A DNA stretch of 25,564 nucleotides from a virus (taxonomy: Duplodnaviria > Heunggongvirae > Uroviricota > Caudoviricetes). The first letter of the stretch is position 1, and each line of letters begins with the position of its first letter. Location: IMG/VR virus record IMGVR_UViG_2778261069_000008; one strand, given 5' to 3'. A model generated the notes under the pieces. That model was not told the DNA's origin. It saw only the letters and a list, made by a program, of their open reading frames with translations, and ran no database searches. Made by a program: the position numbers and the translations under genes. Positions 21,286 to 22,623 of the stretch are shown here, in pieces.

Positions 21286-21336
21286 CGTTACGCAGTAACG
21301 TCACTGCGCCAGATATGTTACCGTTACTGCGTAACG
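21286..21336. repeat. Upstream pair of 15-bp motif CGTTAC-GCA-GTAACG (opposite centre orientation)
   Basis: CGTTACGCAGTAACG at 21286-21300 and CGTTACTGCGTAACG at 21322-21336, just upstream of the RHH-like gene start. Confidence 0.65.
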
Positions 21337-21355
21337 AATAACCGGAGAACAAACA

Positions 21356-21643
21356 ATGGCAATGAGTAACGCAGAGCGCCAGGCCAGATACCGTCGCCAC
21401 GCACGGAAACGTACTGAAAATTACACGGCGCGACTGAACACGGAGATCCTGTTTGAGGCAAAAATGGCCCTGAAACGCCTGTCATTACACAATAATCTGT
21501 CACAGCGGGAGGTGCTGGAGCAGATCATTATTCGGACAGATGAAGTCCTGCGCCAGTCACTAAGCGACCAGGAGCATGACCAGTATCTGGCTCTGACACT
21601 GCAACCATTACGCAACAGGAGAAAAAATAGCGTTACGCAGTAA
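21356..21643 (+). CDS. Small basic DNA-binding protein, possibly ribbon-helix-helix
   Basis: 95 aa, Arg-rich N-terminus (ERQARYRRHARKR) then predicted strand-helix-helix (YTARLNTEILFEAKMALKRLS...LSQREVLEQII); stop codon lies inside a motif copy. Confidence 0.5.
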   Translation: MAMSNAERQARYRRHARKRTENYTARLNTEILFEAKMALKRLSLHNNLSQREVLEQIIIRTDEVLRQSLSDQEHDQYLALTLQPLRNRRKNSVTQ

Positions 21644-21710
21644 CGATGTTACCCGGTGCCGTATTCCCTGGTGATTGCATCAGGAATACCGTCATCGTTA
21701 CGCAGTAACG
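21631..21710. repeat. Downstream pair of 15-bp motif CGTTACGCAGTAACG with intervening hairpin
   Basis: Copies at 21631-21645 and 21696-21710 (same orientation), separated by an inverted repeat GTATTCC...GGAATAC. Confidence 0.65.
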
Positions 21711-21738
21711 TACTATTTTACGCCATTCATGAAATCAG

Positions 21739-22623
21739 TTATTCCTCCTTCCAGCGGTAGCCGTACACCTGCTTCACCCAGCGACCACGACCGTCGCCGT
21801 GACCCAGATCCGTCGCCGTCAGCGCCAGCGATTCTTTTTCGCTGAATCCCTGCGCCAGATAATGGCGGATCGCGTCCTGCGCCCACGCATAACGCAGCGA
21901 GTGCGGGGAAAATTCCCCCTTCAGCCCCGCCTTAATGGCCTGTTTGTGCCAGTGATCCAGTGCCGTTTTGAGGTCGGGCCTGTCGATCAGCCTGCCGTTA
22001 CGTTGTTTTGCAACCGACCATGCGTTCTCCAGCGCCTTGCTGACTGCGCCAGCGTCCAGGATCGTCGTATAGCGCGGACGTCCGCCTTTGGTGCCAAACA
22101 CCACTTTCAGCCGGGTTTCGCCGCGGGAAATGGCTTTCAGCCACGTTTTCAGCGACTGTGAACTCTGTACCGCTTCCTGCGAGCGTAATCCCATCAGCCG
22201 CGCGATCTCCACCGCTGCCGCCAGCCCTGCATCCTGCGCGCGGGCATTTTCCATCACTTTTTCATAATATTCCGGCGTAATGGCGCGGTGCGTGCCGTTG
22301 CGTGACGCCCCCGACAGCCCCAGAACCTTATTGGTCAGGCGCGGATGCTCCACCACCTGTCGGCGTCCAGCCTGTCTCAGCACGGCCCGCAGCGCCGCCA
22401 TTTCGTTTTGCAGCGTACGCAGACCGATATCCTGCTCCAGTCGCGCCTGAATGTAGCATTCGATATGACGAACTTTGATCTGCTCCACCCGCTGGATCTG
22501 AATGTTCAGTTCGCGTAAATGCTGACTGAACCGCTTCGTGGCATGGATACGATCATTTACCGTTTTGAAGCTGCCGCCTGCTTTCTTCGCCAGCGCCTTC
22601 ATTTCACTGCTTAATTTGCTCAT
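21739..22623 (-). CDS. Tyrosine recombinase (small integrase/Xer-like)
   Basis: 294 aa from MSKLSSEMK with GGGGG SD; catalytic order R (MGLRSQEA) ... HSLRYAW ... GRWVKQVYGY consistent with the R-K-H-R-[H/W]-Y signature. Confidence 0.7.
   Translation of the reverse strand: MSKLSSEMKALAKKAGGSFKTVNDRIHATKRFSQHLRELNIQIQRVEQIKVRHIECYIQARLEQDIGLRTLQNEMAALRAVLRQAGRRQVVEHPRLTNKVLGLSGASRNGTHRAITPEYYEKVMENARAQDAGLAAAVEIARLMGLRSQEAVQSSQSLKTWLKAISRGETRLKVVFGTKGGRPRYTTILDAGAVSKALENAWSVAKQRNGRLIDRPDLKTALDHWHKQAIKAGLKGEFSPHSLRYAWAQDAIRHYLAQGFSEKESLALTATDLGHGDGRGRWVKQVYGYRWKEE

Follow-up and report, generated by a model that had tools for sequence, protein, structure and literature searches.

Virus record IMGVR_UViG_2778261069_000008 (Caudoviricetes) contains a small gene bracketed by four copies of a palindrome, located near the right end of the 25,564-bp stretch of DNA analysed here and referred to as the window. 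The segment 21286-21645 is probably a self-contained module, consisting of a ribbon-helix-helix (RHH) autorepressor of 95 amino acids (aa) and a set of predicted operators conserved throughout its family. An earlier note on this DNA had proposed an operator array of an autoregulator as one of three explanations, together with the recombination sites of an invertible or excisable cassette and a partition- or addiction-like module. Comparative evidence strongly supports the first of these: the motif and the protein co-occur across distant bacteria, and the palindromes keep the same placement with respect to promoter, start codon and stop codon. The coordinates of all features are given in Table 1.

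The four palindromes

The motif CGTTACNNNGTAACG is present in four exact copies, as previously noticed, and a search of the whole window tolerating one mismatch adds no fifth. Base composition predicts 0.0015 such palindromes and dinucleotide shuffling 0.01, with none of 100 shuffles reaching four. The two copies upstream of the gene, O1 (distal) and O2 (proximal), have opposite centres, as had been pointed out: the TGC of O2 is the reverse complement of the GCA of O1. An inverted repeat with 20-nt arms, 95% complementary, is found at O2. The third copy (O3) does overlap the stop codon of the gene, and the inverted repeat described between it and the fourth copy (O4) is real. O4 forms the left edge of the recombinase module that the window has in common with Escherichia coli.

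Within each palindrome, the 13-bp core GTTAC-N3-GTAAC comprises two 5-bp sub-sites, GTNAC, each palindromic in itself, with centres 8 bp apart. The core GTTACNNNGTAAC occurs 27 times inside the module and not once in approximately 127 kb of enterobacterial sequence outside it. The palindrome is not a general host repeat, and the earlier concern that it might be a common repetitive element of the host is removed.

Co-occurrence of the motif with a protein family

Palindromes of the form GTTAC-GCA/TGC-GTAAC surround the gene in all of its close homologues. In Salmonella, Buttiauxella and Klebsiella, DNA homology to the module covers 21282/21286 to 21644/21646, its limits coinciding exactly with palindromes 1 and 3. 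Escherichia albertii contigs (L010-L012) share 94-98% DNA identity and the same gene order with the window, which points to a source resembling E. albertii. The RHH gene has the same orientation in all six distinct enterobacterial relatives.

The association extends well beyond this group. A motif-only scan of public genomes (GTTACN3GTAAC-N10-40-GTTACN3GTAAC, one genome per species) retrieved at least 120 loci; among the 120 matches listed, which contain the pair by construction and only sample the total, 41 encode a family member at the pair and 79 are unrelated loci without the RHH family. The 41 come from Ralstonia, Paraburkholderia, Cupriavidus, Nitrosospira, Accumulibacter, Francisella and Desulfuromonadales, among other hosts. 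In IMG/VR viral contigs, the same scan found a family member at the pair in 14 of 58 cases, and the specific GCA/TGC pair had no match in IMG/VR. Nine further loci were fetched by protein alone, and these carry the motif upstream of the gene in eight cases and at the stop region in seven.

The geometry of the sites is likewise conserved. Across the Proteobacteria, where the 13-bp predicted operator is almost unchanged, the upstream palindromes are found some 55 and 26 bp ahead of the start codon, with a -10 box between them. Of the 40 distinct members with an upstream motif, 38 have the centre of O2 16-29 bp ahead of the start codon, and O1 usually lies 26-30 bp upstream of O2. The centres of O1 and O2 are reverse complements of each other in 24 of 35 pairs, involving six different triplet pairs, which indicates that the two sites form a mirrored unit. 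An internal copy, typically on the codons for xYGVT, is present in 21 of 44 distinct members; the TAA stop is embedded in a palindrome, as in the window, in 17 of the 44, and in eight more a palindrome follows 17 bp after the stop. This 3' palindrome is kept in the DNA even though the encoded C-terminus varies (PLRSNK versus SVTQ-stop). Among the papers open to searching, none contains the motif sequence and none links IS66 to a comparable RHH gene.

The 95-aa protein and its relatives

The protein is most likely a small uncharacterised RHH repressor. It begins with a basic N-terminal helix (NAERQARYRR), followed by a predicted strand (ARLNTEI), helix A, helix B and a 35-aa C-terminal extension with a nearly invariant tyrosine. 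An AlphaFold model based on 114 sequences reproduces the basic N-terminal helix and an extended segment (YTARLNTEIL), and assigns the two helices a predicted local distance difference test score (pLDDT) above 90; the modelled protein thus has the strand-helix-helix topology of the RHH superfamily. Its best structural matches include the RHH antitoxins TacA, MazE and ParD and the centromere binders omega and ParB of pCXC100. This fold comparison bears out the label 'RHH-like' that the earlier note had attached to the protein. A first AlphaFold2 model, built from only 10 sequences, was all-helical and had no significant Foldseek match; it was misleading and was replaced by the 114-sequence model.

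Close homologues are restricted to nine clusters, from E. albertii, Salmonella, Buttiauxella and Klebsiella aerogenes, with 59-95% identity. A profile search of 1.84 billion representatives retrieved 463 relatives at E <= 0.001, so that the family comprises at least 463 cluster representatives at 50% identity, all small proteins of 80-100 aa. Their consensus is MAxxNAERQAxYRxR...RLNTWVSxxAxxALxRLAxHYGVTQRxxLExLI, and they are annotated as 'hypothetical' almost throughout, one UniRef relative being named 'Protein CopB'. The arginine of the predicted strand RLNT is nearly invariant family-wide, matching the invariant half-site of the palindromes, which supports the operator reading.

PF01402 (RHH_1) matches one of 61 members, at E 0.0096, and a PDB sequence search with a 10-sequence profile gave no match. 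The family profile aligns in register with CopG in the PDB (E 0.26), and hhalign assigns the pair a probability of 58% (E 1e-4). PF10723 (RepB-RCR_reg), the Pfam family of CopB, is found at E <= 0.01 in 12 of 61 distant relatives (best 1.2e-6), and most of 120 relatives have weak precomputed matches to it. Close homologues score 13.6 and 17.3 bits against a gathering threshold of 21, a value that the window protein does not reach either; the 95-aa protein is therefore regarded as a peripheral relative of PF10723 and is not filed as a member. NCBIfam and PADLOC returned nothing meaningful for it, and PHROGs only weak matches to families without assigned function.

A blastn search of 5,426 complete E. 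coli genomes with the module detected no copy of the RHH gene, and tblastn of the protein found none in PLSDB plasmids or GenBank phages. Megablast of 21100-22800 gave nothing in plasmids and only an unrelated 138-bp match in phages.

Proposed autoregulation

In MetJ and CopG, two RHH dimers lie side by side in adjacent major grooves. By analogy, two dimers of the 95-aa protein would sit side by side on each 13-bp core, whose sub-sites are suitably paired for this arrangement at their 8-bp spacing. Bound at O1 and O2, the protein would cover the promoter and the 5' leader, from which we infer that it represses its own transcription. The inference draws on distant relatives, in which a -35-like hexamer (TTGACC or TTGCCG) abuts O1, a -10-like hexamer occupies the interval up to O2, and O2 overlies the predicted start of the transcript. 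As read from these sequences, promoter and sites in distant members are arranged in the way classically associated with autorepression. At the 3' end, where the module meets the convergent recombinase gene, O3 (on the stop codon) and O4 would bind further protein. More speculatively, protein bound there would add a roadblock or a loop separating the two convergent transcription units.

Several observations weigh against this reading. For loci retrieved by the motif, only the position of the pair relative to the gene and the extra copies count as independent evidence. The spacing between O1 and O2 is 36 bp in the window versus 26-30 bp in the family, a sigma-70 promoter scan found none upstream of the 95-aa gene in the window, and a different repeat, CTGCGCCAG, unrelated to the palindromes, lies between O1 and O2. 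The hidden Markov model search that had been suggested for both proteins identified the recombinase (PF12834, PF12835) and left the 95-aa protein without any Pfam match, including PF10723 even at E 10. The downstream neighbours of family members are heterogeneous, which makes any function assigned to the 3' sites tentative. Additionally, one or two palindromes persist at the recombinase 3' end in E. coli loci that lack the RHH gene, suggesting either a protein-independent function, for instance as a terminator, or relics. In one of these loci (L133, an aspV-island variant) two palindromes enclose a hairpin at a spacing of 65 bp, just as in the window, and another (L001) resembles L133 minus the stretch between the two palindromes.

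The downstream palindromes as possible terminator arms

It is unlikely that only the upstream pair serves as operators and that the downstream copies bind no protein, owing their selection solely to a role as the arms of an intrinsic, bidirectional terminator. Each downstream palindrome with its T-run is flagged as terminator-like in a scan. In RNA of the plus strand, palindromes 3 and 4 pair around the inner hairpin with a folding energy of -39.8 kcal/mol (z -3.9), and the structure is flanked by an A-tract and a U-tract and followed by UAUUUUA. The E. coli loci without the RHH gene also retain their palindrome(s) together with a T-run at the recombinase 3' end. On the minus strand, however, where palindrome 3 is followed by CUAUUUUUUC, the fold has a z of only -1.2 and is no better than shuffles, and a single 5-bp stem with a 3-nt loop would make a weak terminator. 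The 3' palindrome is moreover present family-wide whatever follows it. One satellite-like metagenomic contig (L140) illustrates this: its RHH gene terminates in the palindrome GTTACGCAGTAAC, with the start of a co-directional small-terminase (Terminase_2) gene 1 nt beyond. Conservation of the stop-embedded site regardless of what lies downstream suggests that protein binding at this position has been selected.

In the favoured reading, palindromes 3 and 4 are therefore probably both protein binding sites and terminator arms. Binding at the 3' sites may serve as a roadblock, form a loop or control convergent transcription. Pairing of O2 RNA with RNA of the 3' palindromes was examined as well and rejected: the centre triplets of the 3' copies have no consistent relation to those of O1 and O2.

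Other alternative explanations

A different possibility is that the small protein binds elsewhere and that the palindromes are bound by a host protein or by the N-terminal domain of the recombinase. The persistence of palindromes beside the recombinase in E. coli without the RHH gene would fit such a factor. However, motif and protein family are found together in hosts that are phylogenetically remote and across different types of element, a range spanned by no single host factor or recombinase family, which makes this explanation quite improbable.

Much the same low probability applies to a partition or addiction element, in which the protein would be a centromere binder of the ParG/omega type or an orphan antitoxin and the palindromes a centromere or a toxin-antitoxin operator. 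The structural matches to TacA, MazE, ParD, omega and ParB of pCXC100 point in this direction, as do the C-terminal extension with its nearly invariant tyrosine and the location of the module in a genomic island. The proposal of the earlier note nevertheless finds no support: the RHH gene has no toxin or ParA partner in the window, nor a consistent one in relatives. The nearby MazF toxin has its own MazE antitoxin, the two forming a separate and complete module; PADLOC gave no hits, and the element is chromosomal, integrated at tRNA-Asn. The MazF/MazE pair is common to the window and its E. albertii and Salmonella relatives.

The remaining explanation, in which the PF12835 recombinase would invert or excise a small-gene cassette at the palindromes, involves the neighbouring gene. 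As described previously, this gene encodes a 294-aa tyrosine recombinase convergent with the RHH gene, which matches PF12834 (1e-39, 135.4 bits, cut-off 22) and PF12835 (6e-59, 198.7 bits, cut-off 23). The catalytic set R, K, HxxR, H and Y is present by eye and the enzyme looks intact. Its immediate proximity is in favour of a recombination function, and so are several boundaries: E. coli homology starts at palindrome 4, or at palindrome 3 in L133, homology of the RHH module spans palindromes 1 to 3, L001 resembles an L133 from which the inter-palindrome stretch has been deleted, and in some genera the module precedes a conserved non-coding block that it follows in others. These facts show a shuffled module whose limits fall at its conserved sites; such limits are, however, expected for any shuffled module and do not require site-specific recombination. 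The core site of a tyrosine recombinase consists of two inverted arms around a crossover region of 6-8 bp, whereas the palindrome has a centre of 3 bp and arms of 5-7 bp. The motif and the RHH family occur without PF12835 in K. aerogenes L003, where Thoeris-like and TIR genes follow the RHH gene, and in about 40 non-enterobacterial loci, including an IS66-family element, and no inverted or empty variant was seen among the six distinct enterobacterial relatives, a small sample. Since the self-contained module is found in many kinds of mobile DNA, the palindromes are not regarded as recombination sites; this explanation is very improbable, and the suggestion of an invertible or excisable cassette is removed for the window.

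Mobile-element settings

Family members are almost always surrounded by genes of mobile elements, such as integrases, IS66 transposases, primases, toxin-antitoxin systems and defence genes, and the RHH module is often convergent to the recombinase or transposase gene of the element. A prominent case is found in Ralstonia pickettii, where two 99.97%-identical copies of 3.0 kb, with an 87% relative in another genome, constitute an IS66-family element bounded by terminal inverted repeats GTAAGCGCGAAATTAAGCGCACCT / GTAAGCGCTAAATTCAGCACACCT (beginning GTAAGCGC) and flanked by the 8-bp target duplication GCTTCTTC. The RHH gene with O1 and O2 lies inside the right end, convergent with the DDE transposase gene, and a palindrome stands between the stop codons of the two genes, which is the same convergent layout as in the window. 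Other family members have the 0.67-kb RHH module without the insertion sequence. The satellite-like metagenomic contigs (L140 5001-5691, also L141-L143), in which the small-terminase gene follows directly on the palindrome at the end of the RHH gene, carry AlpA, RepB_primase and T5orf172 genes.

These settings raise a broader, tentative possibility, somewhat doubtful at present, that the RHH gene and its four-operator bracket form a portable 'governor' module, recruited repeatedly by unrelated mobile elements (tRNA-Asn islands with a PF12835 recombinase, the IS66-family element, the satellite-like elements) and controlling recombinase or transposase expression. Such control would act from the operator on the module's own stop codon, by roadblock, looping or convergent transcription. 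To our knowledge, this mode of mobile-element regulation has not been described for this protein family.

Autorepression through family-specific operators would give an explicit predicted DNA target, GTTAC-N3-GTAAC, and a testable function to widespread 'hypothetical proteins' of 80-100 aa in mobile elements. The stop-embedded and intragenic predicted operators represent an unusual and conserved layout. Their study could reveal how small repressors insulate or throttle recombinase and transposase genes in islands and insertion sequences.

Island setting and neighbouring features

The first 17.8 kb or so of the window is a lambdoid prophage, which carries a sok antitoxin RNA, DicF and a cluster of four tRNA genes (Gly, Thr, Lys, Met). 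Towards its end the window enters a genomic island, which is integrated at tRNA-Asn and in which the RHH module lies 0.9 kb past the P4-type integrase. A 139-nt direct repeat (20324-20462 and 20558-20696, 83% identity) covers the 3' end of this integrase gene and the hairpin after it, which suggests a remnant of a second, tandem copy of the island or integrase. At the right end of the island stretch, a C4 antisense RNA lies next to isrK.

The island stretch is strongly enriched in the repeat TGCRCCAG, often extended to CTGCRCCAGAT; the 9-mer CTGCRCCAG is found 11 times versus 0.5 expected. The polarity of the repeat switches along the stretch: copies are on the plus strand between the P4-type integrase and the PF12835 recombinase, one of them between palindromes 1 and 2, and on the minus strand upstream of the recombinase, around the EFASI and STAXI motifs. 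Binding sites of the recombinase or of an island factor, or iterons, are candidate functions. A conserved non-coding block is also present at approximately 21040-21130 (GGCCCTTTGG...GGCGCTGTTACCC...CCCTTTCTGGCGCA). Both the repeat pattern and the block recur in relatives from E. coli, Salmonella, Buttiauxella and Klebsiella. In the window (21040-21645) and in Salmonella (L007 5814-6291) the RHH module is downstream of the block, and in Buttiauxella and K. aerogenes (L002 6001-6600, L003 6001-6690) it is upstream, in the same orientation; the module has therefore changed place relative to its surroundings.

Table 1. Features of the window and of related loci discussed in the text (positions refer to the window unless a locus is named).
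Feature	Position	Strand	Remarks
tRNA-Asn	18898-18973		Island integration site
P4-type integrase ORF (open reading frame)	19033-20397		After tRNA-Asn
TGCRCCAG copies	20969, 21031, 21305, 21549, 21851, 22045	+	
TGCRCCAG copies	21121, 22958, 22985, 23324	-	
Palindrome 1 (O1), CGTTAC-GCA-GTAACG	21286-21300		Predicted distal upstream operator; centre 63 bp before ATG
Palindrome 2 (O2), CGTTAC-TGC-GTAACG	21322-21336		Predicted proximal upstream operator; centre 27 bp before ATG
Shine-Dalgarno GGAG	21344-21347	+	8 nt before ATG; read from sequence
95-aa basic RHH protein gene	21356-21643	+	ORF, homology, fold comparison
Compound dyad	21624-21720		A-tract, palindrome 3, inner hairpin, palindrome 4, T-tract; terminator-like, between convergent genes
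Palindrome 3 (O3), centre GCA	21631-21645		Includes TAA stop (21641-21643); codes C-terminal V-T-Q-stop
Inner inverted repeat GTATTCCCTG ... CAGGAATAC	~21660-21691		Between palindromes 3 and 4
Palindrome 4 (O4), centre GCA	21696-21710		65 bp past palindrome 3; 29 bp beyond recombinase stop codon
294-aa tyrosine recombinase	21739-22623	-	PF12834 + PF12835; convergent with RHH gene
EFASI RNA motif (RF02957)	22681-22809	-	Directly upstream of recombinase gene; 94.8 bits, gathering 51.2
MazF/PemK toxin	23431-23763	-	Complete pair with MazE/ChpS-like antitoxin
MazE/ChpS-like antitoxin	23764-24021	-	Downstream of recombinase module
Other Rfam/tRNA features	25095-25182, 25204-25282, 6005-6179, 2780-3089	-	
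Other Rfam/tRNA feature	13430-13481	+	
IS66-family element with RHH gene	L014 3858-6862; L062 4411-7416; L099 1846-4868		
E. coli palindromes without RHH gene	L001 6002-6016; L133 4002-4079; L134 4003-4015; L135 4003-4015		

Comparison with known systems

Recombinase modules with PF12834/PF12835 and the EFASI and STAXI RNA motifs are known from enterobacterial islands, and the neighbour of the RHH gene is a clear member, exceeding the Pfam and EFASI thresholds. About 400 bp upstream of EFASI there is a sub-threshold STAXI match (23213-23292, minus strand, 28.6 bits versus a gathering score of 40.5). The order STAXI-EFASI-integrase is the one described by Rfam, as quoted in PMC12370729. The recombinase DNA is 84-93% identical to that of an 'integrase domain-containing protein' in about 510 of the 5,426 E. 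coli genomes, where the recombinase module differs in having no RHH gene. The RHH module is an add-on to it in a few lineages only (E. albertii, Salmonella, Buttiauxella).

The fim switch, shufflons and integron attC cassettes resemble the window in that a short gene is flanked by repeated palindromes beside a tyrosine recombinase. Unlike in these systems, the 3-bp centre is too short for strand exchange, no orientation variants are found, and the repeats track the RHH gene, not the recombinase.

A parallel is offered by CopB (RepA2) of the IncFII plasmids R1/R100, a small basic protein with an N-terminal helix of the type xxAE[RK]Q followed by strand-helix-helix. Against the family profile it reaches an hhalign probability of 69% (E 4.5e-5, 57 columns); by tblastn, the CopB sequence used is 98.8% identical to an annotated replication regulatory protein gene of IncF-type plasmids. 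In an IncFII plasmid, the stop codon of copB falls within a dyad, AAAGTAAAG-A-CTTTACTTT, which parallels palindrome 3. Immediately beyond copB comes the promoter region of repA, the target that CopB represses. The window gene differs in having no replication initiator or CopA-type antisense RNA downstream and in its chromosomal location in an island. Its downstream neighbour is the convergent tyrosine recombinase, and the neighbours of its relatives are heterogeneous. The IncFII region, in turn, contains no GTTAC-N3-GTAAC, and we know of no upstream operator pair that brackets copB.

Compared with the classical repressors CopG of pMV158, Arc, Mnt and MetJ, the window protein has an additional basic N-terminal helix and a C-terminal extension. 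The four-site layout of its family (a 5' pair, an internal copy and a stop-embedded 3' copy) is conserved family-wide, and the predicted operator sequence is constant over members with only 30-40% protein identity. On balance, an autoregulated RHH repressor with operators specific to its family is the best explanation of the module, which would make it an uncharacterised form of a well-known kind of system.

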